From positions 46,524 to 110,523 of the IMG/VR virus record IMGVR_UViG_3300000228_000004: 64,000 nucleotides of DNA. One strand, 5' to 3'. Made by a program: the position numbers and the translations under genes. The notes under the pieces were generated by a model. The model saw only the letters and a list, made by a program, of their open reading frames with translations, searched no databases and had not been told where the DNA came from. Below, piece after piece: positions 1 to 21,785 of the stretch (its first letter is position 1; every line of letters starts with the position of its first letter). The DNA comes from a virus.

Positions 1-1705
1 ATGTATCTAATTCTAATAATTGAACCACATTTCCACCGAGATCGTTGTGTTCTTGATAAACTTTCTTCGCAGTTGAAAGTCTCTCGTATTTTTTTTCTAC
101 TGCTTTAAGTTGGTTCATTTCTTCATCAGATTTACCAGTCCTGTTTTTAATTCTTACCAGTGCTTCTTCGTAGGAAGTACTTAAAAAAAGTACCACTGGC
201 TTCCTTAGTGTCATATTCTTTAGTGTATCAAAATATGCAGCTATTGTATCTGATGGTATTGAACCCTCTAGATACACGCTAAAATCACTGAACTCTTTCC
301 TGTTTAATACTTCTATGGCATACATGATTTCTTTCTTCTTGAGCGTGTCACATCCCCCAAAATTAGATTCCACTCCATAGTTACCCAAAGAGATGAAGTT
401 ATATTTCGGAAAAACCGTGAAAATGGTTTTCTTAAAATAATTTGAATAAATTTTATACGAAAGAGAATCAGTTGCAAGCATTTGCTTGGGGATAGTTGAT
501 TTTCCGGCACCGTTCCCCCCCTTGACATACATGAAAGTTGGTTCACTTTTTTTAATTATTTCAAAAAAACTTTCATCAAATTTTTCGACTGGTGTATCAA
601 ACCAGTCATCATATAAATTAGGCGCGTAAACTTCTTTCTTAACGATGTCGAGTTCGATGTCCCCAACGAAGTTGAATGTTTCTTCGTACTCGTAAATTTC
701 TACTTCAGTGGGCATCTTTCTATTCAAATTTTCGGCGGAAGTTTTAAGGTCTGGTACTGACCCAACTACCCAAAACAGGGTTTTATCGTTTATCAGTTCT
801 GGGTGATTTTTTAATAGGTATTCGTAAACTTTCGCTTCATATCTATAATGAAATGTTATGTCATCTATTTGAATACCCTTAATGGTTTTAGAATACGGTT
901 GTTTCGTGTCGTGCCAAATGAATTCAAACATCGATGTGTCAGCACCCATTAAAGAAAGCCTTTCAAACATATAGTCACGCTTATCGACCCCCACATTTAT
1001 GAGGTGTATTCTTTTCAATGCCTTTGGCGTATCTTTATCATCACTTAACCCCAATAATATAGAAGTTGCTGAATTCGCTGAGCCGAATGGTATGATTAGA
1101 TCAGTGATAAAGGTTGGTATATTCTTTACCTGATGAGCGCCAACTTTATGGAAATCAGTTACCATCTTAGCTGAATTCACAGAAAGCCTATGATCCAGAG
1201 TGATATCTCTTTCAATGGTAAATGATTTCGGGAACTTTTCCATAACTTCCCCGACCCTCTTTTGTATATTCACATTAAACCCAGAGCCACTTGATATTTC
1301 ATACTTAGTACCAAACATAGTCGCGAATAAAGGAAGTTGGTGTTTATTTATAGCGTCGAAACTTGTCCCACCAGCCACTTGAATACACCGAAGCCCGTAA
1401 TGCTCTGCCATTGCGGCAGCCATAATGGTCTGTGGTGATGAGTTGACATTCGTTGCGTGTATTACTGTATCAGCACCCGTTGGTCTATTTTCAAATAAGT
1501 GAAGGAGTTGTCTACACTTAGACCCGTTCGCGGTGTTTATCCCGAAAAGAGAGAATTTATCTTCTCTCTTATAGTACATACCATCTGATTTCTGTTCCAC
1601 TGGGGTTAGTTCCCACATATAATCTTTCCACCGTTTACCTTCCGGAAGAGGAAAGGGTACAACGGAATCTCGTAAATCTTCATTCAGTGTAATTCTTTCT
1701 GTCAT
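1..1705 (-). CDS. PLP-dependent (fold type II) enzyme fused to P-loop 5-hmdU DNA kinase; 3'-truncated by window edge
   Basis: Absent from the ORF track because there is no stop in the window. Manual translation from ATG at 1705 stays open to base 2: MTERITLNED...YYKREDKF...NGSKCRQ (PLP lysine region)...IPFGSANS...LYDDWFD...MYVKGGNGAGKST (P-loop)...LGNYGVESNFGGCDT...VYLEG...LVRIKNR. Confidence 0.8.
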   Translation of the reverse strand, partial: MTERITLNEDLRDSVVPFPLPEGKRWKDYMWELTPVEQKSDGMYYKREDKFSLFGINTANGSKCRQLLHLFENRPTGADTVIHATNVNSSPQTIMAAAMAEHYGLRCIQVAGGTSFDAINKHQLPLFATMFGTKYEISSGSGFNVNIQKRVGEVMEKFPKSFTIERDITLDHRLSVNSAKMVTDFHKVGAHQVKNIPTFITDLIIPFGSANSATSILLGLSDDKDTPKALKRIHLINVGVDKRDYMFERLSLMGADTSMFEFIWHDTKQPYSKTIKGIQIDDITFHYRYEAKVYEYLLKNHPELINDKTLFWVVGSVPDLKTSAENLNRKMPTEVEIYEYEETFNFVGDIELDIVKKEVYAPNLYDDWFDTPVEKFDESFFEIIKKSEPTFMYVKGGNGAGKSTIPKQMLATDSLSYKIYSNYFKKTIFTVFPKYNFISLGNYGVESNFGGCDTLKKKEIMYAIEVLNRKEFSDFSVYLEGSIPSDTIAAYFDTLKNMTLRKPVVLFLSTSYEEALVRIKNRTGKSDEEMNQLKAVEKKYERLSTAKKVYQEHNDLGGNVVQLLELDT

Positions 1706-2937
1706 AACCACTCACTTATTTGTTTTTCTATGGTTGGGGTGATTTTATTATTGGTTTTCTTCCCATACCATTCTTTTTCTTTTTCTTCGTGATTAATGAA
1801 GAAATTATTTTTAAAAACTGGGTTATAATTTTCCATCATAATAACTTCCCCTGTTTTCTTATACCAATTCTGTTTGACCTTAACCAATCCTGGGTCATTC
1901 GGGTTATCTTCCATCCTAAGTTCAGAAGGAAGATATTTTCTTCTTGCTTCCCAAAAATCTTTGAAATCTATATCAGACCCATCAATTTCTTTCCAATCCC
2001 TTGTTTCTGCTTTTTTTATTCTATCATGGAACATATCATTATAAACATTAGGATATCTTCTATTTTCCCTGTGCCAACTCTTATAGCAACAAAGCGTGGA
2101 CTCAAGGGTGAAGTAGTTCACATCTTCAAAGAACGGTTCTTGTGAAAATCTTTCCTTGGCATCTGATAATAGTACCGCGCCCTCTTTTTCTAGCCAAATC
2201 ATAACTTCTTTGTTATGCCCGTTGACTATTTCTGTTGGTAAATCTTGGTTATCTTTTCTAACATCAAGATCATCCCTACCACTCACTACACAAAGACCGT
2301 TCCGGTGTGATTTTGAACCAGATTTATCATAAATGAAGAGACTACCGCAATCTATGTTTAATCCCATAATTTTAAGATACTCAAGGTATGAAAATGTTGA
2401 AAGCCTTCCATACATAAAAAAATCGTTAAAAACGGTATCCCAAACTTTTTCAAAATTTCCATAAACATCACCAGTATCACAAAGGTCTGAAAAATACCCT
2501 TCTTGCGTTTTACCACCCAATAATTCTAGGTAATTTTGGTACATTTCAATGAAGTGACCCTTTTGGTATCTTCTGTCGATATCATAGTCGAGGTTTTTCC
2601 AATATTCTCTATGCCATTTTTCCATGTCTTCTATAGAAGAAGACCTTAAAGAAGGGAAATGTTTAAATAACACCCAGGAAGTGAGTGGGTTTTGTGTTGC
2701 TCCGTTTATAAACGCGAACCACAATCTTGTCTCAAAATCCCAATCATGTTTCTTAGCCAAGAAAGGCATCACATAATATACTGCCCCTGGATGAGATTTA
2801 TACTTTAAATGGAACCCATAAAAATTAAGGAAAACTTCTCTTCTATATTCAGGCAACCGAAAATCAACGCCCTCTGCTAATTCCCTTTCTTCGACCCCAT
2901 TTATGTGACAAAATCTACCCAATACCATTGATATCAC
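1702..2937 (-). CDS. amino acid:DNA transferase (AADT / aGPT-Pplase2 family), thymidine hypermodification
   Basis: DFRLPEYRREVFLNFYGFHLKYKSHPG, DIDRRYQKG, GRLSTFSYLEY, GSKSHRNGL, LESTLCCYK and RRYPNVY motifs resemble M6/PaMx11-type AADTs. The likely true start is slightly downstream of the track start. Confidence 0.8.
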   Translation of the reverse strand: MISMVLGRFCHINGVEERELAEGVDFRLPEYRREVFLNFYGFHLKYKSHPGAVYYVMPFLAKKHDWDFETRLWFAFINGATQNPLTSWVLFKHFPSLRSSSIEDMEKWHREYWKNLDYDIDRRYQKGHFIEMYQNYLELLGGKTQEGYFSDLCDTGDVYGNFEKVWDTVFNDFFMYGRLSTFSYLEYLKIMGLNIDCGSLFIYDKSGSKSHRNGLCVVSGRDDLDVRKDNQDLPTEIVNGHNKEVMIWLEKEGAVLLSDAKERFSQEPFFEDVNYFTLESTLCCYKSWHRENRRYPNVYNDMFHDRIKKAETRDWKEIDGSDIDFKDFWEARRKYLPSELRMEDNPNDPGLVKVKQNWYKKTGEVIMMENYNPVFKNNFFINHEEKEKEWYGKKTNNKITPTIEKQISEWL

Positions 2938-3460
2938 CTTTTATGAATTCATAAATTTCCACCCATTCAACATAAGGGAATTCGTCACTGGGCGAGTTAA
3001 GGAAACTTTTAATTTGAAAAACTTTAGAATGAGGGGAAACATCCCTACAATATTTCTTATAGTCATCAACGAAATAATCACATCTCACGAATTTCTTATC
3101 AGAAGTGGACACAAACCCCTTAGAGTATGGGAAATTTCTTCTTATGAAATGTCGTTTCGATTCTTCATGCTCTGGGATACAACTTGATACGAATATTATA
3201 CCAATACCGAGTTCGTGGATTTTTTGTAAGTATATTTTAGCATGTTCAAATGCTTCTAATTTATCATATAACTTAGGGTCTCTCCAAAATTTCATTGGGT
3301 CATTATGATTTTTCATCAAGGTTTCTAGGTCATTATTCTCAGATGAAAGTGACCCTAAATCATCCCCAGTCAAATCTTTGTACCAATTTACCCAAGGGGT
3401 AACTGAGTCAACCACTGTTAAATCAACATCGACCGCGATTATTTTATTCATTTCAGACAT
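2915..3460 (-). CDS. HAD-family 5'(3')-deoxyribonucleotidase
   Basis: DVDLTVVD motif I and FVDD motif IV. Confidence 0.8.
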   Translation of the reverse strand: MSEMNKIIAVDVDLTVVDSVTPWVNWYKDLTGDDLGSLSSENNDLETLMKNHNDPMKFWRDPKLYDKLEAFEHAKIYLQKIHELGIGIIFVSSCIPEHEESKRHFIRRNFPYSKGFVSTSDKKFVRCDYFVDDYKKYCRDVSPHSKVFQIKSFLNSPSDEFPYVEWVEIYEFIKGDINGIG

Positions 3461-3583
3461 TTTTCACCTTTTTGTTCATTTTACTAAAGTAACCTTTCAG
3501 AAACCTTAAATCTTTTTAATAAACCACGCTTAGTATGTTTCATAGATTTAAGGTCAGTATAAGTTTCAGTTCCGACTTTAATT

Positions 3584-4225
3584 TTATTTGAATAATTTGG
3601 TGTTATCTTCGTTACCATTTTCATCAAATTTTGCATATGCATCAGCTGATTCAGTATAACCGCCGTCAACTCTTTCGTGGTTCAGTTTATTCTTCCCCAT
3701 ATATAATTGATACATATATTCAGGTGTCATATTCGCGTACCACCCAAGTGAATTTATCAGGTACACGAACGCGGTCAATGATTCTTCCCTTTGGTCTAAA
3801 AGAGAAGATAATGAAAATGAATTGATATCTAACATCAATCCACTAGATAAATTTTCCCCATTTTCATCAAATTCCGCTTTAGAGAACTCCTCGTGGCAAG
3901 AAATATAATCACCTAACAATTGTTCTATATTAGACCCGTAATTCATAATCAATACACTGATCGCAAAGTGGATAATATCAACTGCTTCTACTTGCATGTT
4001 ATTAAAGTCATTCTCTAGGAAAATTTTCCACCACTTCCAACCAGTTCCTGTATCACCAGTCCTAGGGGAACTTTCCAATAGTTCCCCTAACTCAGCCATC
4101 ATTGCTGAAATAAAGTGTGATTTTGGGATAATCTCAGCCCAATCTTCCCCTGAATACTTCTCATTTAATAATACCTGTGCGCTCAAAATTTCACTAAATT
4201 CATTTACTTTCATTATGTTAAACAT
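3584..4225 (-). CDS. dut: dimeric (all-alpha) dUTPase/dNTP pyrophosphatase
   Basis: AELGELLES, WKWWK, EAVDIIHF and KNKLNHER..GGY motifs of Campylobacter-type dUTPase_2. Confidence 0.85.
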   Translation of the reverse strand: MFNIMKVNEFSEILSAQVLLNEKYSGEDWAEIIPKSHFISAMMAELGELLESSPRTGDTGTGWKWWKIFLENDFNNMQVEAVDIIHFAISVLIMNYGSNIEQLLGDYISCHEEFSKAEFDENGENLSSGLMLDINSFSLSSLLDQREESLTAFVYLINSLGWYANMTPEYMYQLYMGKNKLNHERVDGGYTESADAYAKFDENGNEDNTKLFK

Positions 4226-4236
4226 TATTTTTCCTT

Positions 4237-4666
4237 TTATTTATGATTTGAAGTACTCAGTACTTCACCGTCCTTATCAACCCATTTTCTCAGTTTGAAA
4301 TCCAGTATATACATAGTTTTATCTGAATTTTCTTTGGCATCAATCGTGTGTTTTGTGCCCTTAGATTCCCCATCCCAGATAACCAAGAACATACCCGAAT
4401 TATCCCAGATGGTTTTGTTTCTTATAAAACCAGCACTTTCCATATTTTTCCCAATCAGCTGGGTAAATTTCAGTGGGAATATCATTTACTTCAGTATAAT
4501 ATTCAGCCATAGAATCTATCCCTCTTGCGCCACCTGATACTATAGTGTCAAATTGTGTTTTTAAACGCATAGAGTCTAAAATTTTTACCAAAAGGTCAAA
4601 ATCTTCAAACCCACGGGAACCAATGACCGCTAATCTTATCACGGGGGGGAGAACCACTTTTTTCAA
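4237..4666 (-). pseudogene. SLOG/YspA-like (DUF2493) protein, frameshifted
   Basis: N-half (LAVIGSRGF...IVSGGARGID...YPADWEKYGK) and C-half (SAGFIRNKTI...WDGESKGTKHTI) are in different frames, about 2 nt missing near 4438. Confidence 0.7.
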
Positions 4667-4683
4667 TCACTGTCTCATCCTTA

Positions 4684-5865
4684 TCAATGCGTTTTCAACC
4701 ACTCATCGGTTTGTTTTATTTCAGTATCTGAATCATTTGGATTTCGTTTATACCTATTTCTTGGTCTTCCAGTTTTCTGTTTCACAGAGACTATTTTTTG
4801 TAATTCACAGAAACTGTTTTCACACATCATAACATTTAATTTTCGATCTTCCTCTGGTAAATGGTCAAAAAGTTCACTATAATCAATGTGAAGTCCGCGT
4901 TTTTCCCATTCAGTCTCTATATTATCCCTGACCCAGAATAATGCTTCTTCGTGGGTCATACCGTCCCTGTCTTCCATTAAAAGGTCTATCCCTCTATCAC
5001 ATCCTGGCCCAGACACTACGAATTCATTTTCACTGAACTTGAATTCTGGTATATATGTTAAGTCAACAAATACTTGGTACGCCAAAAACCCAGCCAATCC
5101 TGGGATTTCTCTCAAAATATTGAATACTTCCTCTTGAGTATTCGCCCCTTGAACTCGAGTGGATATATCCGTGTTTTTAACCCATTGTATCATGTGTATC
5201 ATCCTAGTTGGCATATTTTTTTCTACACCAACTATTTCATACCCTTCATTTTCTTTAATATACCCCTTTGCTTCTTTCCAGGTCATTTCTTCTGTGTCAA
5301 TATGACCTTCTTTTCTTACCTCAACCACCATACCCGAATTCGTGCATTCGTACTCTAATGTTTTAGGGAAAGCCCAACTTGCTTTGAGCCCACCAGTGTT
5401 AAATGCTGGTGTGAAAAATGCATATTTCGGATTTTCTTTAGCATATTCGATAAATATTTCACGGAACGCGTCTATGTCTAAATTGTCAAAATCTTCTATG
5501 TAACCACCAAATAATTCTGATGTACTAGACTTGTTATATGTTCTGAAGAAGATAGAATTGAGGATCTTTACTTCTAGTGTTAGATTCGGGTTTGTGCTAA
5601 TATTCTTAATCAACCATTTAGACTCTCTATCGAGTTCACGCCTTACATTAGTGAATCTATAATTCTTGAACACTTCATCGTCTGTCCATTCTTGTTGTGG
5701 TAATTTTTCAATTTCTTTTCTTTTGTGTATATTGTGTCTTTCAGACATGAACAAATTATGATATCTTAGCACCTCTTCATTTAAAATCGGTTTCGCGTTT
5801 TTTATCTTTTCGATATCAACACCACAATATCTAATATCGGCTTCCTTTGTTTTCATTAAAACCAT
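4684..5865 (-). CDS. aGPT-Pplase1 / 5-hmdU DNA kinase helical-domain (HhH) protein
   Basis: ERHNIHKRK...WTDDEVFKNYRFTNVRRELDR, FLAYQVFVDLTY, GPGCDRG, ENSFCE. Confidence 0.8.
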   Translation of the reverse strand: MVLMKTKEADIRYCGVDIEKIKNAKPILNEEVLRYHNLFMSERHNIHKRKEIEKLPQQEWTDDEVFKNYRFTNVRRELDRESKWLIKNISTNPNLTLEVKILNSIFFRTYNKSSTSELFGGYIEDFDNLDIDAFREIFIEYAKENPKYAFFTPAFNTGGLKASWAFPKTLEYECTNSGMVVEVRKEGHIDTEEMTWKEAKGYIKENEGYEIVGVEKNMPTRMIHMIQWVKNTDISTRVQGANTQEEVFNILREIPGLAGFLAYQVFVDLTYIPEFKFSENEFVVSGPGCDRGIDLLMEDRDGMTHEEALFWVRDNIETEWEKRGLHIDYSELFDHLPEEDRKLNVMMCENSFCELQKIVSVKQKTGRPRNRYKRNPNDSDTEIKQTDEWLKTH

Positions 5866-7025
5866 TCCTCAAGTTTAAAATTTTGCTTCATATCATAACC
5901 AACTGCTTCTAACATAAGGTTAAGTGGTGATATGAAATAATCTTCCCACATTTTACCCCTATCAACATATTTTTCAAGCCCAGAGTCTGTTATAAAGTCA
6001 GAATCTAGAAACCCGATTATATCATCACCTAAAATGTTGGGTTTCTTTAAAATACAATATTTTATTTTATCACTGTCTGTTATTTTAGGGTATTTGGATA
6101 ACCCAGTTCTTTCTAAAAAAATATTGTAATTCATTGCCGCCCTTACATTCATTGGCGCAGTTAAAATTTTTCCATTTTTCTTAGTGGTGAATTTACCTAT
6201 ACCCCCCTTATAATCCAAAGACCCGATACCAGAAACCCTGCATATGTCACCCAATGGTGCTTTGTAGAATTTCTCTTCTATCTCAGATATAGAAGCAATC
6301 GTTTCTTTTGCATCGTTATCTAGAATTACATTCACCATATCTTTGAGATATTTCCTACAAAAGGGCGGAGTAGAAGATCGTACTATCTCCAACCCAGTGA
6401 CCGCCAATTTAGGGTCATCGACAAGTATAGACCCTTCGTCCCAAACGGCACGCAAAGCATATTTTTTCTTTGCAACAAACATCCCTTTATCGGCAATTTT
6501 TTCAAGTTTTGCCCCGATGGGCTTGGCACTAAATGCGTTGAAATTGTCTGAGAAAGAATCTATGTATTCTTGGACCCATACATCGAGGTATTTATGATCA
6601 AAATTAACAAGTTTATCAAGTATTTCGTGATTATTAGCGGTGTCGAATTTTTTTACTAATTCATTAAGAGTAAAATACACAGAGTCGGTGTCACCATAAA
6701 CTACAAAGTCAATATTGGTATTAAGAACACTTCGTAACTTCCCATTTACATAATTCGCCAATCCTTGTATAAATATCCTACCGTTCCCAGTGATACTTGC
6801 AGCAACATCTCGATTGAATAGTAAAAAGTGTATATTTGCTAGAGCACCATATAATGAGTTCATCGAAATCTTTAGAGCCATCTGATATACATCGAAATAA
6901 GCAATTCTAGTGTCTATATATTTCATATCTGCCGTTAAACCACTAACATCCAAATCGTTGATTTTATCAATCGTCATTGAACCGTCTTCTATACCATCGT
7001 AAATTTCTTCTATTGTCATGTTCAC
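5856..7025 (-). CDS. 43: family B DNA polymerase, C-terminal fragment (fingers-B, palm, thumb; gp43B-like)
   Basis: KISMNSLYG, SITGNG, YGDTDS, KKKYAL, GLEIVRSSTP. Confidence 0.95.
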   Translation of the reverse strand: MNMTIEEIYDGIEDGSMTIDKINDLDVSGLTADMKYIDTRIAYFDVYQMALKISMNSLYGALANIHFLLFNRDVAASITGNGRIFIQGLANYVNGKLRSVLNTNIDFVVYGDTDSVYFTLNELVKKFDTANNHEILDKLVNFDHKYLDVWVQEYIDSFSDNFNAFSAKPIGAKLEKIADKGMFVAKKKYALRAVWDEGSILVDDPKLAVTGLEIVRSSTPPFCRKYLKDMVNVILDNDAKETIASISEIEEKFYKAPLGDICRVSGIGSLDYKGGIGKFTTKKNGKILTAPMNVRAAMNYNIFLERTGLSKYPKITDSDKIKYCILKKPNILGDDIIGFLDSDFITDSGLEKYVDRGKMWEDYFISPLNLMLEAVGYDMKQNFKLEEWF

Positions 7026-7745: not shown

Positions 7746-7777
7746 TTTAGACCCTTTATGTTTAATTATTATATAAT

Positions 7778-8380: not shown

Positions 8381-8836
8381 TTAAAGTTCTTCCTCTATCG
8401 CGGTTTCTTCTATCTTACATATAAACAGTGCACCCTCTTCTTTACCTTCCTCTCCTGTATAAAAACCACTTGTGATAAAATAATTACAAGTTTCACTGTC
8501 GTATATAACCCACTTCCACTTAGTCACCGTTTTCGGTTTTATGCGATAAGAATACTCAGCATATAGATGCTGAGTGAACATATCCAAATCAGTGAGTGTA
8601 GTTATTTCCCACTCTCCGTGCAGTGTATTGAGCCATTCAATTTGCGTTTTGTCATCTACGAATTGCTTTCGTAGTGATGCATATTCATCGTCTAGTATGT
8701 AGATTAAATCCTTATCCCAGCTTGGTAATGTTGTTACATCCCAAAGTTCATCAGTTGGCATCTTACACCATACTATTGTTCCAACTGGACTATTTGCGAA
8801 TTTAATCATCTCTTCTTTATGTACTCTGCCCATCAT
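8381..8836 (-). CDS. YRIKP-family paralogue 3
   Basis: Shares H..E...WA..P.GT.VW, YI[LV]DD, RKQF and YRIKPKTVTKWKWVI motifs with its neighbours. Confidence 0.7.
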   Translation of the reverse strand: MMGRVHKEEMIKFANSPVGTIVWCKMPTDELWDVTTLPSWDKDLIYILDDEYASLRKQFVDDKTQIEWLNTLHGEWEITTLTDLDMFTQHLYAEYSYRIKPKTVTKWKWVIYDSETCNYFITSGFYTGEEGKEEGALFICKIEETAIEEEL

Positions 8837-8995
8837 TCAACTTCCTTTCTTGTTTCTTCTATCTTACATATAAAAAATGCGTTACCATTACCTTCCTCTC
8901 CTGTATAAAAACCACTTGTGATAAAATAATTACGAGTTTCACTGTCGTATATAACCCACTTCCACTTAGTCACCGTTTTTGGTTTTATGCGGTAA
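8445..8995. repeat. ~100-bp near-identical direct repeat in the 3' ends of two paralogues (8445-8549 and 8891-8995)
   Basis: ccttcctctcctgtataaaaaccacttgtgataaaataattac[a/g]agtttcactgtcgtatataacccacttccacttagtcaccg... with three substitutions seen. Confidence 0.85.
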
Positions 8996-9282
8996 CAGTC
9001 TGATGTATGATTCCACAAGAACCCATCAAATTTTAACAGATTTTCAAAATTGTTTGGAACCCATTTACTTGAACACTCATCATATATCTCAATCTGTGAT
9101 GCATTATCTATGAATTGCTTTCGTATTTCTGAGTGCTCGTCATCTACGATGTAGTGGAAATTATTATACCATCCTGGTTCTACTACCTTAACCCACTCTG
9201 TGTGCCTTTTTTCCCTATACCAAACATTTGTACCATCAGGTCTATCCGCCCATCTATTAATTTCTCTTCTATGGTGTTTCAT
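8833..9282 (-). CDS. YRIKP-family paralogue 2
   Basis: Same motifs as 8381-8836. Confidence 0.7.
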   Translation of the reverse strand: MKHHRREINRWADRPDGTNVWYREKRHTEWVKVVEPGWYNNFHYIVDDEHSEIRKQFIDNASQIEIYDECSSKWVPNNFENLLKFDGFLWNHTSDCYRIKPKTVTKWKWVIYDSETRNYFITSGFYTGEEGNGNAFFICKIEETRKEVE

Positions 9283-9743
9283 ACTTCAAACTCTCTTTCA
9301 GTTTCTTCGATTTTACAAACAAATATATGGAATTTACTTTTTGAACCATCTACATAGTAACCATTTGATATTCTATGTTCATTCGTTAAGATATCTTTTA
9401 TAACCCACTTCCACATAGTTACCGTTTTCGGTTTTACCCGATACCTATGCCCCATATCAAGAAATTTCGTTAGGCTATCTAGCTCCCGTCTATCAGTTGC
9501 TACCCACTTATCATCGATATAGTGGTGCCACTCGACCCTTGTCGGGTCATCAAGGAATTGCTTTCGTATTTTAGCGTGTTTGTCATCTACTATGTATAAG
9601 AGATCTGTATTCCAACTCGGGTGGGCTGTTAGTATCCACTCCAGTTCATTTTGTCTTTTAAACCATACACCAGTTGCTTCTGGTGCGTCAGCCCAGCGTA
9701 TTATTTCACTTCTATGCTTTTTCATCTTTTGAATATCCCCCAT
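9279..9743 (-). CDS. YRIKP-family paralogue 1
   Basis: Same motifs as 8381-8836. Confidence 0.7.
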   Translation of the reverse strand: MGDIQKMKKHRSEIIRWADAPEATGVWFKRQNELEWILTAHPSWNTDLLYIVDDKHAKIRKQFLDDPTRVEWHHYIDDKWVATDRRELDSLTKFLDMGHRYRVKPKTVTMWKWVIKDILTNEHRISNGYYVDGSKSKFHIFVCKIEETEREFEV

Positions 9744-10583: not shown

Positions 10584-10616
10584 ATTATACCGCAAGTTAG
10601 CTTAAAGTAAGGTTAA
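10584..10616 (-). promoter_or_regulatory. early promoter; distal TTAA overlaps the stop codon of the middle polymerase fragment
   Basis: Minus strand TTAACCTTACTTTAAGCTAACTTGCGGTATAAT. Confidence 0.8.
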
Positions 10617-11878
10617 ACAGTCTTCAATTTAGCTTGTAATGCTTTATACATTAACATTTTTCTCTTTACTTCTTTCCTAGTAGAATAAATGTTCCCTACT
10701 ATTTCGGGTATTATACCCTCATTGTCACGCCTAAAGAAAGCATTCATGCCAAAAGCAACATCATATTTATGCGTAACTTCTCTAATTTCAGCAAGGCTAT
10801 CAGGATTAAGGTACACTTCTTCATGCTCGTGTGTGTGATACTTAGCTCGTAAATTTTTCAATTCTTGAGGCAACTCATATTCATTTATATATGTTTCTGG
10901 TGACATATTAAAAGCGCGCATACCAAGTAACGGGTACATTGAGTTGACGTCGACTGAAACCAACCAATTATGTTTACCCTTTTGTGGTTGTCGAACATAA
11001 CCACCAATAATTGTTTTATCTAGGCGGCTATGTCTGTCGAACGGCATTACAAGTCCCTCTTTCATAGCAAGGTTAGTCAGATATTGCCCCCAAGGTTTAA
11101 CAGTGCCGAAGGAGTCATCCATATTAATACCCATCATTGAAGATAAAATTTTCATAAGCTCTATTAACTTCAGTTTATCCTCTAGTTTTTTCAGGAGCAA
11201 AACATCTTGTATAGAATATTCTATGAATAAGTCTTTATCCCCGTGATAGAAATCTACTATATCATCAAACTTCCCATAGTCAACCTTACCCTCACCAACA
11301 CCAAGTTCCACTTTAACGATGTTGTCCAATGCGTATGACACTTGTGGCTTAGTTACGAACTTTTTGTATGCTTTCATCATATCGATTAGATAAATTCCTT
11401 CCCAGTCATAGTTCATCCCTTCCATCGTTTTTATCTCTTTAACTTTATTAATTGGGGATAATCTTCTATAATTCACCCCGTCCAATTTCATTGCTCTGTT
11501 AGTGATATATGGGAAGTCGAATGAATCACCATTCCAAGCAGTTATAACCGTCGGTTTTAAATTTTCAAGTAATTTAATAAAATCTTTAAAAAGTTCTTTT
11601 TCATCATAGTAGTGTTTGAATATCAAATTATCATATTTCTTAAATTTGGTTTCGTCGACCATTTTGTCTAAACTTAGAATTATTATCTTGTTGCTATAAC
11701 TGTCGTATATCTGTATTTGTGAAACTGTCTTTTCAGCAAGCTGAGGATCTGGGAATGACTTATCTGCGTAATAACATGAATTTTTAAATAAAACCCATTC
11801 ATTCAATTCTTCATCGAATACTTCATAGTCAGTATAATCTTCAGCAAGAATCTCCGACATTTTCATTATTTTTTCCAT
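10613..11878 (-). CDS. 43: family B DNA polymerase, middle fragment (Exo II/III, palm motif A, fingers-A)
   Basis: FPDP, AWNGDSFDFPY, YSIQDV, GGYVRQP, SVDVNSMYP, GIIPEIV..IYSTRK. Confidence 0.95.
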   Translation of the reverse strand: MEKIMKMSEILAEDYTDYEVFDEELNEWVLFKNSCYYADKSFPDPQLAEKTVSQIQIYDSYSNKIIILSLDKMVDETKFKKYDNLIFKHYYDEKELFKDFIKLLENLKPTVITAWNGDSFDFPYITNRAMKLDGVNYRRLSPINKVKEIKTMEGMNYDWEGIYLIDMMKAYKKFVTKPQVSYALDNIVKVELGVGEGKVDYGKFDDIVDFYHGDKDLFIEYSIQDVLLLKKLEDKLKLIELMKILSSMMGINMDDSFGTVKPWGQYLTNLAMKEGLVMPFDRHSRLDKTIIGGYVRQPQKGKHNWLVSVDVNSMYPLLGMRAFNMSPETYINEYELPQELKNLRAKYHTHEHEEVYLNPDSLAEIREVTHKYDVAFGMNAFFRRDNEGIIPEIVGNIYSTRKEVKRKMLMYKALQAKLKTV

Positions 11879-14624: not shown

Positions 14625-14739
14625 ATCAATCCTTTTATTACAACGCGATGTATATTATTTTCACATGCGCGTTACCACCCATAACGGGGGTGTTTGTTTT
14701 GGTTATTATACCACATTAATATAAAATCAAACTTAATCA

Positions 14740-15557
14740 ACCTTTGCTAAAACCACTCAGAAACTAACTCTAAATTTTCACTGAAAAATAAACATTCCAA
14801 ATTTCCATTTTTTTGTTTGTTGGTTGAAGGAGCAGTTGAATTCATTTCCCTTATTTTTTCGAATTTTAAATCACCATTTATATTGTTCAGTATATCTGTA
14901 TAAACATAATCAAAATCCCCTTTTTTTAAAAAGTCAATGAATTCGCGTAAATCGTTTTCAGAAAACCCACTATAAGATGAAGCTTGTGAAAAATAAGGGG
15001 ATCTAAAAAATACAGCGCATCGGTGTTCCCCATCAGGGTTTTATATGATAGATTAGTAATCTTTGTCTTTCTTAATACATCTTTCACTGAATTGAAATCC
15101 GTTTCATTTAAAGTGTAAAATCTACCCCCGAAGCTTTGATTCATACCGTTTGGTCCAAATCTTAAAAATGAATTAATACAAGAATTTGTTAAAAAATGTA
15201 GATATACCCCTTCCTCTTCTACCCCAGTCTTCCAGAAATTTTGATTGAACCAATCCCTGAAAGCATAATAAGAATTTTTGTCTTCTTTTATATATCCCCA
15301 AATTTCTCTAGTACGAACCGTTGTTCTTGGGTATATTCTTTGAAATTTATTATTTTAAATGTTTCGTACATTCTATATATATTTTCGTCTAAATCATTTA
15401 CCGAATATTCATCAAATGATTTATCCAAATTAAACAAAACCGCACCTGAACCGACGAAAGGTTCTATATAAATTTCCTTTTTCGTATTATTGATGTATTC
15501 ATTTATGATACCGACAAACTTAGATTTACTGCCGGAATACCTAAAAAATTTTAACAT
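14740..15557 (-). pseudogene. dam: Dam-like N6-adenine DNA methyltransferase, frameshifted
   Basis: FRYSGSK, EPFVGSGAV, NDLD, RFGPNG.NQSFG; the FLDPPY motif is broken by a missing C in a C-run near 14997, with another shift near 15290. The reconstructed end is ...LVSEWF*. Confidence 0.8.
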
Positions 15558-15572
15558 TTTTTGTCCTTGTTA

Positions 15573-16553
15573 TTAAAACGGGGTGTTTATGTGGTCTTCA
15601 ATAATTTCAATGATCCCCTCTATTATACCCAAGTGGTCATCCCTCAACATATTATCATCAATAGTAATACCGAAAGCATGATCATGTCCACCACTTGATA
15701 TTACCATCGGGTTTTGTCTCACATACCACAGGATAGTATCTTTCAATTGCTTAGCGTCGGTGTTATCTACCCTATGTGAAAATCGTATAGAAATATTCTT
15801 ACCTTTTGTCTCATAAGGTAAAACATAATAATCGAAATCTGGGTAGTCATTTTGCCAAAATGACTTATGTTTATCACAAAAAGCAAGTAAAATAGAATTT
15901 TCTTCGTCAAACACCGCTATATTGTTTTCTATAAGTGATTTGAAATACCTATCTTTATCTTCCAAAATTTTAACATATATATCTTTGAACATTTTAGGTA
16001 TTTTATATTGGTTTCTTATGATGTTTGATTTGAATGCCGAAAGCTTCAATTCCCAGAATACTGAATTTAAAAACCAACCTATTTTGAAATTAGTTGGGTC
16101 TTCAAACTCTTTGTATATATCAAATGCATTAATAAACCCAACCAACTTTCCTAAATCTTCATTTACTGAGTGCGTAAATTCATAAGTCAATAGGGTAGCT
16201 GACTTCCCTATCTCGTGCTTACAGTAAACATTAGGGAAACTCGCCAATTCATTAAATGTTTCTAATACATCACCCTCATATGGGTGATGGTCTATGAATA
16301 TAATTTTAATATGTGGGTGCCCTTCCGCTACTCTCATCAATTCTAGAAAAGCATCTTTATCGAAACTTAAATCAGTCACGAATAGGGTTTTAGTTAAATG
16401 ATTGATGTCCAAGTCTATTGATTTCAGTGTATCTGTTACTGACCCATACGATACATGAAAGGTATCCATATCCCCGAATTTTTCTCTTAGTACTATGTTC
16501 GACCCAGCGCCATCAAGATCATTATGCGTCAAGTTAATTCTTTCTTTCATCAA
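15573..16553 (-). CDS. DHH-family phosphoesterase/exonuclease
   Basis: THNDLDG, VTDLS, IDHH and GGH motifs. Confidence 0.85.
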   Translation of the reverse strand: MMKERINLTHNDLDGAGSNIVLREKFGDMDTFHVSYGSVTDTLKSIDLDINHLTKTLFVTDLSFDKDAFLELMRVAEGHPHIKIIFIDHHPYEGDVLETFNELASFPNVYCKHEIGKSATLLTYEFTHSVNEDLGKLVGFINAFDIYKEFEDPTNFKIGWFLNSVFWELKLSAFKSNIIRNQYKIPKMFKDIYVKILEDKDRYFKSLIENNIAVFDEENSILLAFCDKHKSFWQNDYPDFDYYVLPYETKGKNISIRFSHRVDNTDAKQLKDTILWYVRQNPMVISSGGHDHAFGITIDDNMLRDDHLGIIEGIIEIIEDHINTPF

Positions 16554-16987
16554 ACTTTACCCTTTGAATATTTTTTGTTAATTCTTTCTATTTCGATTTC
16601 AGGCATCATTTCTATATATTCTAACGCAGTACTTTCATTACACCTATAATATCTCATTACATTATCGATGGAACCGCTTTCGAATTTTTTCTTCCCTTTT
16701 TCAAACGGTATAAAACTTTTCGAGACCATGTTTCGTATTATATCCCATTGCTTATCAACTGGTATAGTTTTAGTCGTGAACATCAAAGCAAAATCTAAAG
16801 TATTCTCGAATCTAGCCAATAATTTATGAAACATAAATTCACTTATTTTCTCTTTTTCTTTTTGGGGGGGTTTTATTTTTTTATCAATACTAGCATTCAT
16901 TACGCTCCACATAGAAGTTTCTTTTGGCGGCATATACTCTGGTATACTGGTTTCAGTATGGGTTATACCCCATTCATCAGCCAACAT
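16550..16987 (-). CDS. 62: clamp loader small subunit (gp62-like)
   Basis: Size, position near gp44 and the VMRYYRCNESTALEY helix motif. Confidence 0.7.
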   Translation of the reverse strand: MLADEWGITHTETSIPEYMPPKETSMWSVMNASIDKKIKPPQKEKEKISEFMFHKLLARFENTLDFALMFTTKTIPVDKQWDIIRNMVSKSFIPFEKGKKKFESGSIDNVMRYYRCNESTALEYIEMMPEIEIERINKKYSKGKV

Positions 16988-17372
16988 CCGATACCTCAGA
17001 TGTTCGTTTTGAATTAGCGGAAACTGGGGCTACTGGGTCAGGCGTTTCCTGACCTTTACCCTCACGCGGAATTCCTTTCTTTTTCATTAGGTCGTGAACA
17101 CCTAGATTGGCTTCTTCACCAAATATGTCATAGTAATAAGAAATCGCGTCATTGATATTAGAGCTATGAAATTTATAAGACTCTTGTGCTTTTTCAACGA
17201 TACTCTTGAGGTTTTCATCTTCTGGGGTTTTATCCAGGACACCAGCCATATGTGAGTGAACAGACATTGCTTGTGACGCAAGGTGTGAATTTGACAAGGT
17301 ACTGAAAACTAAATCTAACCTCACTGTAATTTCTTCTAATTTTTTTCTTAACTCTTTCATTTCATTTTCCAT
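16977..17372 (-). CDS. hypothetical protein
   Basis: ORF with RBS. Confidence 0.55.
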   Translation of the reverse strand: MENEMKELRKKLEEITVRLDLVFSTLSNSHLASQAMSVHSHMAGVLDKTPEDENLKSIVEKAQESYKFHSSNINDAISYYYDIFGEEANLGVHDLMKKKGIPREGKGQETPDPVAPVSANSKRTSEVSDVG

Positions 17373-17482
17373 TTCATTCCCTTAAAATTGTTGATATTAT
17401 TACAACATAAGACCATATGTAGCTACATATGGTCGATCTCTCCCAATCCTCTGCATATGACTCCAAAGTACATTGTATGAAT

Positions 17483-17830
17483 TTACCATATATTCATAGA
17501 CTCACTTGAACCAGATATCGTTTTCGGTTTGATGCGGTATTTTATCCCTCTTTTAATATTCGAATCAAACCTGTTTAAGGTATCTGTAACTGTATCACGC
17601 CACTCATTGGTGTATTTATCACGCACTTGAATTTCCCTTCGGTCATCTATGAACTGTTTCCTAAGTTCCGCATATACATCATCTACTATGTAGTGATTGT
17701 ATATACACCAATTTGGTTCTTCTAGAAGTTCCCATCTTTTTCCTGGTTGTCTACTTCTGAACCACACCTTAATACCTGATGGGCTATTAGAGAATTTGTC
17801 CATCTCATCTTTATGTCCAGGTTTACACAT
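17483..17830 (-). CDS. YRIKP-family paralogue 4 (dispersed copy)
   Basis: HKDEM..F.NSP.G..VW, YIVDD, RKQFIDD, YRIKPKT. Confidence 0.7.
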   Translation of the reverse strand: MCKPGHKDEMDKFSNSPSGIKVWFRSRQPGKRWELLEEPNWCIYNHYIVDDVYAELRKQFIDDRREIQVRDKYTNEWRDTVTDTLNRFDSNIKRGIKYRIKPKTISGSSESMNIW

Positions 17831-17839
17831 TTCATTCCC

Positions 17840-18397
17840 TTAAAATTCAAAATCTTCATCATCTATTTCGCTATGCATAAAAGTATATTTTTCCTCAAAC
17901 CTCAACGCTACTGCTGGGTCTGATAATATTGGCTTCAAAAATTCCTTCCAATTATTCCATATTTCCTTTTCTCGCCATTTTTTGTCACCTTCTACACTAG
18001 CGCGTGAATAATACCCCATAGTCGGTTTTGTCACGAAACCGAATTCCAATAAATCATCTAAGATTCCATATGCTGGGTGTATCCCTCCGTCATATTTTAT
18101 GAGGTATCTAAGCTTCGTCAGTTCTTTACAGAACCTAGACTTTTTTGTCTGGGCTAATATTAATGCGCCAGTTATTTCCGTACTTGAATCAGTATCTTTC
18201 GCTTTTGCTTTTGAAGATCCAAGTACAATCGAGCTTGAAGCGAAGTATAACCCTCTACCACCGCCAATCGCAAGTGGATCGAACTGGTTCATGGAATTAT
18301 GTGAAATCAGCCCATTTCCTAATATATAATTATGACAAGGCGTTTCAATGTCATATACAGTTTCATGACCTTTTATGTTTACGCTTTTAACTTTCAT
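17840..18397 (-). CDS. uvsX: UvsX/RecA C-terminal half preceded by a 34-aa C-intein
   Basis: MKVKSV...VYDIETPCHNYILGNGLISHN|S (blocks F/G) then MNQFDPLAIGGGRGLYFASS...KKSRF; own AGGAGA RBS. Confidence 0.92.
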   Translation of the reverse strand: MKVKSVNIKGHETVYDIETPCHNYILGNGLISHNSMNQFDPLAIGGGRGLYFASSSIVLGSSKAKAKDTDSSTEITGALILAQTKKSRFCKELTKLRYLIKYDGGIHPAYGILDDLLEFGFVTKPTMGYYSRASVEGDKKWREKEIWNNWKEFLKPILSDPAVALRFEEKYTFMHSEIDDEDFEF

Positions 18398-18791
18398 CTA
18401 TTTCTCCTAATTTAATTTTCCACCCATAGAATTTACTTCTTTTGGAATATGGTTCTCTTTTCACACCCCGATTAAATTTGAATTACCATCATCCAATGTC
18501 AGTATATAACCTCTGGTCGTCATATAATTGGATATCATCATCAGTGACTAATTCACTCACTGGTACCCAAATTTGTTTTCCATCTCGCTCAACTAAAAAC
18601 TTATGGTTTTCCGTGAATTCCAATATTTCACCATTTTCCATCTCTATTGAATACACTGGGGCATCATCGTATTGGAAAATATCTTGGACTTCTTGATAAC
18701 CTTCCGTCGTTAATACTTCTTCACCTATCTTAATGTCAGCTAAAGACTTCCTTCCTTCTTTAGTCTTAACGGTCATTTTATTTGTCCCGCA
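18296..18791 (-). mobile_element. naturally split intein in UvsX (IntN 18492-18791, 100 aa; IntC 18296-18397, 34 aa)
   Basis: Cys1 after INQVYD, block B FTENHKF, C-terminal HN followed by Ser+1. Confidence 0.9.
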
Positions 18792-19379
18792 GTCATATAC
18801 CTGATTGATAACAAACACTGTCATCCCCAAACCAGTAAGGAGTTTCGCGAAAGTATTTTTCTTTTTTGATACGGTAAAGTCGGCTGCATCATTACCAGTA
18901 ATCGCGTCATTCACCGATTTAGAAGTGACTAAACCACCCCAAGAATCTATTACAAGTAAAACATTCCCTCTTTCTTCTTTACTCAATTCTTTAGTGATCG
19001 CCATGACCTGTTGTTGAACATCTTCTATTTGGTTACTTTGAATAACGAGGAGTCTCCCGAGGTCAATCCCGACAGAATTAGCAAAATCGAAGTCGAATGC
19101 CATTTCAGAATCGATGTAAATGACAATGAACTCATCATTTATTTTTTGTGAATTTTTAGATACTTTCAACCCAACAAAACTTTTTCCTAAACTGCTTGGC
19201 GCCGCGATTTGTGATATTTTTCCGACTGGTATACCGCCATTCAATCTTCCGCTAAAGAGGATATTCAGTACCAAAGAACCAGTACTGATGAACTTTTGCT
19301 CTCTTTCTATATTTTGGTACAGGTTTTCCTTTATCACTTTGTTTTTTGATAACTTCCCTATCATACTATTTTCTTTCAT
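18489..19379 (-). CDS. uvsX: UvsX/RecA N-terminal half followed by N-intein
   Basis: ISTGS..LN...SG, APSSLGKS, YIDSE, VIDSWG, INQVYD|CGTNK. Confidence 0.92.
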   Translation of the reverse strand: MKENSMIGKLSKNKVIKENLYQNIEREQKFISTGSLVLNILFSGRLNGGIPVGKISQIAAPSSLGKSFVGLKVSKNSQKINDEFIVIYIDSEMAFDFDFANSVGIDLGRLLVIQSNQIEDVQQQVMAITKELSKEERGNVLLVIDSWGGLVTSKSVNDAITGNDAADFTVSKKKNTFAKLLTGLGMTVFVINQVYDCGTNKMTVKTKEGRKSLADIKIGEEVLTTEGYQEVQDIFQYDDAPVYSIEMENGEILEFTENHKFLVERDGKQIWVPVSELVTDDDIQLYDDQRLYTDIG

Positions 19380-19801
19380 TCTTCCCCCGATTTATTGATT
19401 TGTTCTGATTTTTCTTTTAAATACTCTTCATACCTATTTGCTTGGAGATCACTGAGATTATCCAACATCGCTTCTACATCATTGATATCCCTTTCAGGAG
19501 AAGAATACCTGAATTCATCTTCGACACCATTCAATTCTTCCATTAGGAAGAAAAATTCTTCCATGAATATTTCCATACTTAGGTCATCTTCAAATAAAAT
19601 CCCATAAGAGTCATTTATTACTATCGAAGACTCTTTTTCATTTATAGAAACCGAATAAGGGTTTTCTAGAGCGCCATCTAAAACAAACAAGAGCGTTTCG
19701 ACTTCAGTGAATGTTCTATCTTCATGCACGGAATATAATTTCCTTATGTAACCGTTTACTCTCTTCACCATGAAATATGTTACATTATTTAGAAAATTCA
19801 C
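19376..19801 (-). CDS. hypothetical acidic protein
   Basis: ORF with RBS in the replication cluster. Confidence 0.55.
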   Translation of the reverse strand: MNFLNNVTYFMVKRVNGYIRKLYSVHEDRTFTEVETLLFVLDGALENPYSVSINEKESSIVINDSYGILFEDDLSMEIFMEEFFFLMEELNGVEDEFRYSSPERDINDVEAMLDNLSDLQANRYEEYLKEKSEQINKSGEE

Positions 19802-19843
19802 GCTCCCCCCTTTCCTTTAATTATACCGCGTCATACTTTACAT

Positions 19844-20794
19844 TTACTTAAACTTTATCGTGGTATCACTTATAATCTTCACCGCGAACGCGAGTAATGG
19901 GATATGTTTGTTCTTTGCCCTTTGTGAATAGTCTTGGTAATCAGCTAACTCTAGAATAACCATGGGTTGGGCTTCTGGTTTGAAAATATTGTCAAGATTT
20001 TTATATACATAAGTGTAAAAATTATCTGGTATTAAAATTTCATTAACTACATCTTTCACTATCTTGAATTTCCTGTGTAACATCGCATCAATTAAAGAAG
20101 CGAAAATATCATCAGTTTTTGCAATATTTTCGAACTCTAATTTACCGGAACTAGAATGTTTTTGTATGAACATCAACATATTCCTAGTTGATGGGTACAT
20201 AGTAGTCACCACTTTCATTATATCCTGTTTATCGTAGGTAATATCTTCATTTTCAAGTACAGAACACAACCGCTTGAAAATTTGAGTACCGAGTTCTTTC
20301 TTGTTCTGGCTATAAATATCATCCAAATTGAATATTTGTAATCTATCCAATAACGGGGGCATAAGTTTATCTATATAGTTCCCAGTAAACATAAATCTGT
20401 TATTTTTAGCGTACTGTTCTAGGTCAGAACGAAGCGTTGACTGAGCAGCAGTCGTCAGGTAATCTGACTCATCTATACAAGTAATTTTATGTTTACCTAG
20501 AACCGACTTCCCTCTTGAGAACTGACCAATATCATTCCTCATCACATCAATCCCGTTGTCCTTAGAACCGTTAATCCACAAAGTTTCAACACCAAGTTGT
20601 TTAGTAATGACATTCATTATAGTACTTTTACCAGTTCCAGGTGAAAGCCCGAAAATCCCAATATTTGGTATTTCTCCAGAGTTCAACCAAGTTCTTATAA
20701 TAGCCTTCTCTTTTCCTGGGAAAATTAAGTCATCTATGTTCTCAGGTCTATATTTTTCAGCCCATATATATTGTTCGTCGTTAGTTACCATCAT
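19844..20794 (-). CDS. 44: clamp loader large subunit (gp44, RFC-like)
   Basis: WAEKYRP, SPGTGKS, IDESD, AQSTLR. Confidence 0.93.
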   Translation of the reverse strand: MMVTNDEQYIWAEKYRPENIDDLIFPGKEKAIIRTWLNSGEIPNIGIFGLSPGTGKSTIMNVITKQLGVETLWINGSKDNGIDVMRNDIGQFSRGKSVLGKHKITCIDESDYLTTAAQSTLRSDLEQYAKNNRFMFTGNYIDKLMPPLLDRLQIFNLDDIYSQNKKELGTQIFKRLCSVLENEDITYDKQDIMKVVTTMYPSTRNMLMFIQKHSSSGKLEFENIAKTDDIFASLIDAMLHRKFKIVKDVVNEILIPDNFYTYVYKNLDNIFKPEAQPMVILELADYQDYSQRAKNKHIPLLAFAVKIISDTTIKFK

Positions 20795-20799
20795 TTTTC

Positions 20800-21357
20800 C
20801 TATAATTCAATTTGTGTTAAAAGGGAATTGATCCTAATTATTGATTCTCCTTTAAATGTCAAGAAAAGCATCATGAATTTAAGCTTCCTCAATACATGCC
20901 CAAAAGTTCTCCCTAGATCGGCTTGGTCGTTATCGTATTTCCTAAAGAACCACGCGGTGTAAAATTTAATATTTCCGTCCATAAATTCCTTTAAAACTAT
21001 TTGTTGCGTTATGTTACTTCCGTATTTTTCCCTAAAAAATTTTACATCTGCGCCGATAAATTCTTGATAATTGAGAATTATGTGTTTAAACATAGTTATT
21101 TCTTTTAGTTCCAACTCCCTTAGTTCAGCCAACATACCCCTGAAAGAAGAAGGTGTCTTAGAAAACATTATATAAACGCAAGCCAAGACAAAGGTTTCTT
21201 TGGTCTTTCCCTCCCATTTTTGGTAAGGGAAGTATGACTTTGAATTTTCTTTAGTGTTAAATTTATGATTTGAATGTAGTAACCTATAATCTAATTGACT
21301 ATCATAAGTAACAAATATCCCTTGGGCTATATCATATTGTTGGCCAAATTGTAGCAT
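20800..21357 (-). CDS. possible helicase loader (gp59-like)
   Basis: Size, all-helical basic composition and position next to the gp33-like gene; weak motif support. Confidence 0.4.
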   Translation of the reverse strand: MLQFGQQYDIAQGIFVTYDSQLDYRLLHSNHKFNTKENSKSYFPYQKWEGKTKETFVLACVYIMFSKTPSSFRGMLAELRELELKEITMFKHIILNYQEFIGADVKFFREKYGSNITQQIVLKEFMDGNIKFYTAWFFRKYDNDQADLGRTFGHVLRKLKFMMLFLTFKGESIIRINSLLTQIEL

Positions 21358-21536
21358 TACTTTAACCTAAATTCTTTTATAGTAACTACTAATCCGTGTT
21401 CAGTTAAATCATCAGATGCAATATATGCATCTTCTATATCCTTGAATATTTCTATGATATTTCTATCTATAATTATAGCGTAAACCATTCCATTTTCCTT
21501 TATTCCTTATTATACCATACTTCTATAAATTAGAAC

Positions 21537-21785
21537 TTAAACCCACTCTTCTATGTTTAAAAAAGATCTTTTGGTCGTTTGAAACTTAGCTTCGTTGTGA
21601 AACTTTAGGTCTTCTTCAAATGTAGTCCTGAAAGATTTGTCTTTCTTTAACATTTCACCTACTGTGTCTATATCTTTATCCAATTCTTCGCAATAAGTTG
21701 TTATCACTTCCAAGATTGAAATACCAGATAACTTTCTCTGTTTCTTGAACAGTAGAATATCTTGGTAAATACTAGAAAATTCCAT
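21537..21785 (-). CDS. 33: late transcription coactivator (gp33-like)
   Basis: ISILEVITTYCEELDKDIDTVGEML pattern, small size, acidic-aromatic C-terminus. Confidence 0.7.
   Translation of the reverse strand: MEFSSIYQDILLFKKQRKLSGISILEVITTYCEELDKDIDTVGEMLKKDKSFRTTFEEDLKFHNEAKFQTTKRSFLNIEEWV

Follow-up and report, generated by a model that had tools for sequence, protein, structure and literature searches.

The stretch analysed here, hereafter the window, comprises 64,000 nucleotides (bases 46524–110523) of a linear, 110,523-bp IMG/VR viral contig (IMGVR_UViG_3300000228_000004) from an uncultured T4-related phage. The completeness of this contig is estimated at 71%, and its proteins also occur in identical form on a contig of 143.7 kb. 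Nearly all genes of the window lie on the minus strand. Positions 1–24600 hold a T4-type replication and recombination module composed of gp47, gp46, a gp33-like protein, gp59, gp44, a split UvsX and gp62, together with a DHH phosphoesterase, gp41, a frameshifted Dam-like gene and a split family-B DNA polymerase. This module is adjoined by a thymidine-hypermodification cluster consisting of a gp160-like HMUDK_hel protein, MazG, NT5C, an amino-acid:DNA transferase (AADT) and a fusion of a pyridoxal phosphate (PLP)-dependent enzyme with a gp67-like kinase. Immediately to the left of the window are an HMUD2-like kinase-like protein and a thyA-like dUMP hydroxymethylase, and farther left are gp61, RNase H/FEN and gp32. 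Proteins of both groups end in, or close to, a short peptide centred on a tryptophan, E-W-[FLV], which is the subject of this report.

A common C-terminal peptide on replication proteins and modification enzymes

The carriers of the peptide are listed below, followed by two proteins in which a related sequence stands elsewhere. Coordinates prefixed L002 or L003 refer to the same contig outside the window, and terminal sequences run up to the stop codon.

5856–7025, minus strand: C-terminal half of the DNA polymerase (family B, gp43-like; phrog_262/1918, E 8e-90), ending FKLEEWF
21537–21785, minus strand: gp33-like late-transcription coactivator, 82 amino acids (Trans_coact, E 1.2e-3; phrog_254, E 4.7e-4), ending NIEEWV
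L002:7068–8123, minus strand, outside the window: RNase H/FEN, ending SLSEWV
1702–2937, minus strand: AADT (aGPT-Pplase2), a core and a basic linker followed by QISEWL; its homologues carry PF18724
4684–5865, minus strand: ViI gp160-like protein (HMUDK_hel, phrog_2396; PF18723, E 1e-60), called aGPT-Pplase1 in the preliminary description of this DNA, ending QTDEWLKTH
L003:5724–6410, minus strand, outside the window: HMUD2-like kinase-like protein, 228 amino acids (PF18747 HMUD2, 24.3 bits against a cut-off of 25), ending KDTEWF
14750–15557, minus strand: broken Dam-like D12 adenine methyltransferase (PF02086 in segment 1, E 3e-14), the last segment ending LVSEWF
16550–16987, minus strand: gp62-like clamp-loader small subunit (phrog_225, E 6e-14), starting MLADEWGI (MLADEWG at 16967–16987)
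1–1711, minus strand: fusion of a PLP-dependent enzyme and a ViI gp67-like 5-hydroxymethyldeoxyuridine (5-hmdU) DNA kinase, 596 amino acids (PF18748 HMUDK_HMUD1 at residues 391–552, E 6.5e-25), the last 26 residues lying beyond the left edge of the window
599–619, minus strand: internal NLYDDWF in the translated linker of this fusion

Exact C-terminal E-W-[FLV] was found in five called proteins, against 0.033 expected among the 163 minus-strand open reading frames (ORFs); one additional case ends the frameshifted Dam-like gene and another lies three residues before the end of the gp160-like protein. In a six-frame scan, these seven carriers are the only matches located behind open frames of at least 80 codons, all other E-W-[FLV] matches following frames of at most 46 codons. 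The motif takes the form hydrophobic-x-[D/E/S]-[E/D]-W-[L/I/F/V], at the C terminus or a few residues before it, and occupies the last 3–9 residues of the seven proteins behind linkers that are variable among AADT homologues. All seven strings quoted in the preliminary description are present in the sequence, and the gene identities that it claimed hold (polymerase, gp33-like protein, AADT, gp160-like protein, the N terminus of the D12 methyltransferase, gp62 and gp44).

Three relatives of the same clade, G001, G002 and G003, were found through AADT; G001 is complete (155 kb, with terminal repeats) and the other two are fragments. In this phage and in G001, the tail is absent from gp32, gp41, gp44, gp46, gp47, gp59, gp61, ligase and clamp. 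The motif is not spread beyond its carriers. A 527-amino-acid protein of G001 ends LMTEWEK, which we take as chance; it is not conserved in this phage.

Only the shortness of the motif would speak for tails that arose by chance or were inherited from a common ancestor of the proteins. The counts refute this explanation (5–7 seen versus 0.033 expected), the carriers belong to unrelated folds and families, the linkers preceding the tails are not homologous and orthologues of 40–80% identity keep the tails; we therefore attach next to no probability to it.

We also considered that the tail does not serve docking at all, being instead a tag for proteolysis, timing or localization, or a mere consequence of genes that overlap at their starts, GAATGG and GAGTGG containing ATG and GTG. 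The polymerase C-terminal half and AADT do overlap the following gene by a few bases. However, four carriers have no overlapping downstream gene, and the likely starts of the following genes are ATGA or TAATG overlaps, for which an ATG or GTG inside the E-W codons is not required. The residues are kept while the codons vary, glutamate being encoded by GAG or GAA and the last residue by TTT, TTA, GTA, GTT or TTG. Together, the variety of codons and the dispensability of the embedded ATG or GTG indicate that the tail is conserved as protein, not as DNA. Relatives, moreover, keep the peptide with D/E and L/I/F exchanges and at varying distances from the stop codon, and ViI and T4-like phages repeat the pattern with unrelated sequences (see below). 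A role other than docking is thus quite improbable.

The preliminary description had interpreted the peptide as a clamp-binding motif from its distribution over proteins the counterparts of which bind the clamp in T4. This distribution is borne out and extended, as RNase H/FEN, a classical clamp client, carries the tail too. We know of no other single partner for T4 polymerase, gp33 and gp55 as a set. These three T4 proteins (gp43, gp33 and gp55) share interchangeable gp45-binding C termini (PMC2988020), and an LDFLF motif, of which T4 ligase has an internal copy, has been described (PMC6212786). A gp45-binding motif of this clade, with the hypermodification enzymes and the methylase as clamp clients, is the most economical reading of the tryptophan peptide. 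In T4 and RB69, as here, a short hydrophobic-acidic peptide follows a variable linker at the extreme C terminus (gp43, gp33 and gp55; PMC2988020, PMC6212786) and is common to the polymerase and the late coactivator; the present phage likewise has gp44/62 and a gp45-like clamp. The two systems differ in sequence, a Trp-centred x-E-W-hydrophobic peptide here standing in place of L-D-F-L-F, and in clients, which here include the C-terminal tail of RNase H, four to five thymidine-hypermodification enzymes and a Dam-like methylase. The T4 sequence types LDFLF and SLFDMF are not matched, the motif here being x-[DE]-E-W-[LIFV], Trp-based yet still hydrophobic-acidic-aromatic.

Conservation and joint change of the tail

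The tails of orthologous carriers in the three clade relatives are as follows.

Polymerase C-terminal half: VDEWL in G001, MEEWI in G002, ELDDWDF in G003
AADT: TEEWL in G001, LGEWI in G002, IDDWA in G003
gp160-like protein: TLDEWAD in G001, SIDEWL in G002, SLENW in G003
Kinase-like protein: LDEWF in G001, MDEWI in G002, FDEW in G003
Separate 350-amino-acid PLP enzyme: EIDEWLKESE in G001, INEWIGE in G002, EIENW in G003
RNase H: TDEWL in G001
gp33-like protein: VSEWE in G001, MSEWL in G002

The preliminary description had named a lack of conservation in homologues as evidence against its proposal. The tail is in fact kept, and its form shifts jointly among the carriers: in G003 the tryptophan has moved to or near the very end in all five visible carriers (DDWDF, DDWA, LENW, IENW and FDEW), as would be expected if the carriers share one receptor. 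Among the best 120 of 1367 AADT homologues, 15 belong to this clade, and in these the tryptophan is invariant and the glutamate nearly so, after a variable basic linker.

The separate PLP enzymes also account for the internal motif. The N-terminal half of the PLP–kinase fusion is 65–70% identical to these 350-amino-acid proteins, which end in their tails at the place matching NLYDDWF. The internal motif is a relic of the former C-terminal tail of the PLP enzyme. An internal copy need not be inactive, as that of T4 ligase can still bind gp45 (PMC6212786).

Outside the clade, AADTs carry other tails resembling clamp motifs (for example, GIEDFL, NLEKFI, TLEAFL, QSLF and LDLL), and many stop where the catalytic core ends. 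In a survey of 80 related loci, a gp44, gp46 or gp47 gene flanks the AADT gene at 18 loci outside this clade, and at 17 of these 18, in a statistic that ignores phylogeny, AADT has a hydrophobic-acidic-aromatic tail; at the remaining locus (L016) it is a fused protein of 1089 amino acids.

Other lineages follow the same rule with different peptides. In Salmonella phage ViI (L102), the enzymes of which are biochemically characterized (PMC8989533), the polymerase ends RRVNLLSMMGKKG, the kinase gp243 SSVSLLGLMRKA, the AADT gp247 TSVNLMSLLKR and gp160 GSVNLLDRLKKPE, all four sharing a V-N/S-L-L/M tail. The ViI proteome contains eight instances of V[NS]L[LM], of which five are located no more than seven residues from a C terminus. 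In G004, a complete T4-like genome, the polymerase ends ATLEDFFG, a Tet/JBP oxygenase and the next gene (259 amino acids) both end STLDSFF, and AADT ends GIEHFYTE; the tail is thus L-E/D-x-F-F on the first three and I-E-H-F-Y on AADT, and these four are the only proteins of that genome with [LIVM][DE]xF-hydrophobic in the last ten residues. G011 has STLEDFFG on the polymerase and NNNLEKFI on AADT. A PF00136 search of 25 other AADT-bearing contigs revealed a polymerase in only two, and in the jumbo contig G009 the comparison is ambiguous (DKFIKLMK on the polymerase, SLRGFVCKK on AADT). The rule that modification enzymes carry the tail of the polymerase therefore holds with three unrelated peptide sequences. 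The sequences thus show directly that the motif exists, where it occurs, that it is conserved and that it changes jointly across carriers and lineages.

A 70-amino-acid ViI protein, Vi01_049c (L102:30355–30567, minus strand; phrog_4789), ends KVNLLSLMRK, a tail of the ViI polymerase type, which makes this small protein a candidate client of the clamp or a candidate competitor.

A probable sliding clamp and the proposed tethering of modification enzymes

The phage encodes a gp44/62 clamp loader, recognized with PHROGs, and a candidate for the clamp itself:

L002:9302–10006, minus strand, outside the window: divergent gp45-like clamp, 234 amino acids, just upstream of gp32

ESM Atlas features of this protein score 0.97 to clusters carrying PF09116 (gp45-slide_C), the Atlas's own model has a TM-score of 0.82–0.86 to clusters of the 'sliding clamp family', and one homologue, 65% identical to it, has a precomputed PF09116 match. 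The protein came to light only through the ESM Atlas. We conclude that the 234-amino-acid protein is likely to be a gp45-type clamp, an assignment from language-model and structural likeness and from the Pfam match of one homologue that is good but short of airtight because sequence profiles do not connect the protein to a solved gp45.

The preliminary description proposed modelling the peptides with the clamp. A predicted complex of three clamp copies and the last 30 residues of AADT (alignments of 21 and 15 rows, respectively) scored 0.57, whereas the best of three controls scored 0.02; contacts agree between the runs to at least 54%, the partner has a predicted local distance difference test (pLDDT) score of at least 45 and no interface is reported. 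Of 80 solved complexes, 58 pass the mark for this score, as do 2 of 110 mismatched pairs; among scores of 0.60 or less, only 7 of the 80 solved complexes reached it, along with both passing mismatches. Solved gp45–peptide complexes exist, and the pass at 0.57 may partly reflect likeness to them. The modelling of the AADT tail weakly suggests docking.

This weakness is one of several points that weigh against the clamp as the receptor. The Pfam gp45 families PF02916 and PF09116 have no match on the contig, comparison of the clamp alignment with PDB profiles, and with ViI gp45 by hhalign, gave nothing significant, and PHROGs scans of ten and ten further proteins revealed no clamp. Using ViI gp55, gp33, gp45 and gp59 as phmmer queries, we found no match in this clade. 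A gp55 gene is not on this contig, the phrog_234 profile finding gp55 in G001 only, and this G001 protein ends NMDSFMYK, an end that keeps the hydrophobic-acidic-aromatic pattern with phenylalanine instead of tryptophan. In vitro, the ViI enzymes modify naked DNA although no clamp is present (PMC8989533), and tethering is therefore not needed for catalysis.

The N-terminal E-W of gp62, counted as a clamp peptide in the preliminary description, stands on less firm ground. It is present and conserved (MTELDEWGI in G001, MDMSEWGI in G002), but Trp17 of T4 gp62, the sensitive residue, packs against gp44 rather than the clamp (PMC8121543). By analogy, the N-terminal tryptophan here may be a structural residue instead.

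The Dam-like methylase is a further difficulty. Its LVSEWF end is reached only across two frameshifts (at ~15291 and ~14998); FxGxG and DPPY are not in one reading frame, DPPY being restored only across the second shift. The gene is either a pseudogene or the product of an assembly error, and its segments have no tblastn match in related contigs. G002 has an intact D12 methyltransferase of 259 amino acids ending SIDEWL, a different and distant copy, which supports the tail reading of the broken gene. The shifts adjoin short homopolymer runs, one of them dropping a C from the DPPY codons, and this is the only gene needing frameshift correction.

The main rival explanation keeps the modification enzymes concentrated at replication sites, with the tail docking to a receptor other than the clamp: gp32, the helicase or primase, a scaffold of the replication compartment or an unknown phage protein. 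T4 RNase H also works through gp32, and the weakness of the predicted complex leaves room for such a hub. To our knowledge, the gp33 tail has no partner besides the clamp, which counts against it. The controls of the predicted complex scored 0.02 or less, the tails of the enzymes covary with that of the polymerase in three unrelated motif classes, and in T4 a peptide common to proteins of the polymerase, gp33 and RNase H type is known only for gp45 (PMC2988020, PMC6212786). We regard docking to another hub as unlikely, although clearly less so than a role other than docking.

From the pattern as a whole, we infer that the clamp is the receptor and that tethering matters for modification. The tryptophan peptide is thus, with good probability, the gp45-clamp docking peptide of this clade, by which the hypermodification enzymes and the methylase would be tethered to modify nascent DNA; the interpretation of the preliminary description is supported by distribution, conservation and covariation. 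In this mechanism, the peptide would dock onto the 234-amino-acid clamp of the phage itself, and the polymerase, RNase H/FEN and the gp33-like coactivator would employ it in the manner of T4. The same peptide, preceded by linkers that are flexible and often basic, would serve the gp160-like protein, the kinase-like protein, AADT and the PLP enzyme, which are predicted to convert 5-hydroxymethyluracil in DNA to hypermodified thymine, and also the Dam-like methylase. Clamps left on fresh DNA would recruit or carry these enzymes, and nascent DNA would be modified right behind the fork. The sliding clamp is therefore the probable platform from which newly copied DNA is modified, a proposal drawn from sequence comparison. 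With somewhat less assurance, we lean towards a clamp-tethered assembly line of post-replicative base hypermodification in phages that encode a clamp, in which each step (oxygenase or kinase, transferase, PLP enzyme and even adenine methylase) would carry a polymerase-type peptide co-evolving with the clamp in each lineage, and in which the tryptophan form would be a previously undescribed class of gp45 peptide.

Eukaryotic DNMT1 is among the closest published parallels, coupling maintenance methylation to PCNA through a PCNA-interacting peptide (PIP) box. In both cases a DNA-modifying enzyme is brought to new DNA by a short clamp-binding peptide, which here is predicted; the differences are a phage gp45-type clamp, a multi-step hypermodification and a lineage-specific motif. 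Clients such as FEN1 and ligase of the beta-clamp or PCNA 'toolbelt' are known (PMC9690074). Phage T-dioxygenases that depend on ParB are similar in that a thymine-modifying enzyme needs a clamp-like partner sliding on DNA, but that partner is a cytidine triphosphate-dependent ParB, not a replication clamp, and there is no common polymerase tail (PMC13229309). The hypermodification pathway of ViI, M6, PhiW-14 and SP10 uses the same enzyme families (PMC8989533), among them a 5-hmdU DNA kinase, an aGPT-Pplase2/AADT and a PLP decarboxylase; in this phage the families are clustered beside the polymerase. The counterparts of the ViI proteins are a gp160 homologue (40% identical), a gp247-type AADT (29% identical), a gp226-type PLP enzyme, a gp67-type kinase and a thyA-like hydroxymethylase; in contrast to ViI-type pathways, the PLP enzyme of this phage is fused to the kinase. 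Here, and also in ViI itself, the enzymes carry the tail of the polymerase.

The preliminary description knew of no coupling between such enzymes and the clamp, and none is described in the literature searched: full-text searches that combined aGPT-Pplase or hypermodification with clamp terms yielded no account of it, and PMC8989533 has 0 mentions of the clamp. New here are the distinct lineage, the Trp-based motif, which adds to the known classes of clamp-binding peptides, the C-terminal tail of RNase H, the methylase as a carrier and the internal tail frozen by fusion. Newly made phage DNA needs immediate protection against the nucleases of the host. If the proposal is true, clamp-riding enzymes would explain how a multi-step hypermodification keeps pace with replication, and they might explain the modification of only part of the thymines. 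A rule for annotation follows, in which an unknown protein ending in the tail of the polymerase is a candidate DNA-acting clamp client; with such a rule, modification enzymes not yet recognized can be picked out in uncultured phages.

Neighbouring genes and other features of the window

The remaining genes of the two clusters are listed here.

10613–11878, minus strand: N-terminal (exonuclease) half of the DNA polymerase (phrog_262 positions 128–495, E 1e-93)
19844–20794, minus strand: gp44 clamp-loader ATPase (phrog_168, E 4e-73), no motif
20800–21357, minus strand: gp59-like helicase loader (all-helical AlphaFold2 model, pLDDT 95; T4 gp59 1c1k, TM-score 0.65, probability 1.00), no motif
2915–3460, minus strand: NT5C-type 5'-deoxynucleotidase (PF06941, E 7e-8), no terminal motif
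3584–4225, minus strand: MazG-like nucleoside triphosphate pyrophosphohydrolase (phrog_173, E 2e-19), no motif
42947–44041 of the genome: thyA-like dUMP hydroxymethylase, 364 amino acids (phmmer E 2e-42 to the ViI thyA-like protein)

The thyA-like protein is the predicted source of 5-hmdU. AADT itself has no direct Pfam match at E 0.01, and its assignment comes from its homologues, many of which have a precomputed PF18724 match. The gene of 185 amino acids beside gp44 was considered as the clamp and rejected. Its single-sequence fold was uninformative (pLDDT 40), and an alignment of 66 homologues was used instead; the resulting all-helical model (pLDDT 95) has T4 gp59 as its best PDB match. 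This gp59 is closest to those of Campylobacter phages, and the gp33-like gene sits directly upstream of it.

Several replication genes are split. The halves of the polymerase gene lie ~3.6 kb apart, compared with ~1.2 kb in G001, and are separated by three tandem paralogous ORFs of ~150 amino acids (8381–8836, 8833–9282 and 9279–9743), all of which end in a sequence containing CKIEET. UvsX is contained in two ORFs (18489–19379 and 17840–18397), as it is in G001. A UvsW-like helicase outside the window (genome 30805–34094, L002) consists of two ORFs flanking an endonuclease-like gene and is a single ORF in G001. The UvsX and UvsW-like splits resemble interruption by mobile elements or introns.

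The gp32 protein (L002:8216–9289, minus strand) ends DDDDILALLNDL and that of G001 ends SDDDVLAMLDDL. This conserved acidic-hydrophobic tail differs from the E-W peptide and presumably serves as the interaction tail of gp32.

At least ten ORFs of small to medium size, in the window at 43145–63735 and in the genome at 36056–37092, share a near-identical N terminus (such as MLKEILE, MLREIIE, MIREAIL or MLREIVE), examples being 63204–63491, 63493–63735, 60707–62011, 56169–56582, 53782–54129 and 44275–44754. They form a dispersed paralogous family or share a common N-terminal module. At 34424–36305, an ORF of 535 amino acids has one of 93 amino acids directly upstream, with an 8-base overlap; both are found in G001 (50% and 34% identity), and the pair resembles a chaperonin-like pair by size and arrangement. 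Finally, the regions 28600–29150, 36500–37400 and 41100–43030 contain short plus-strand ORFs only and may be non-coding or RNA-gene regions.

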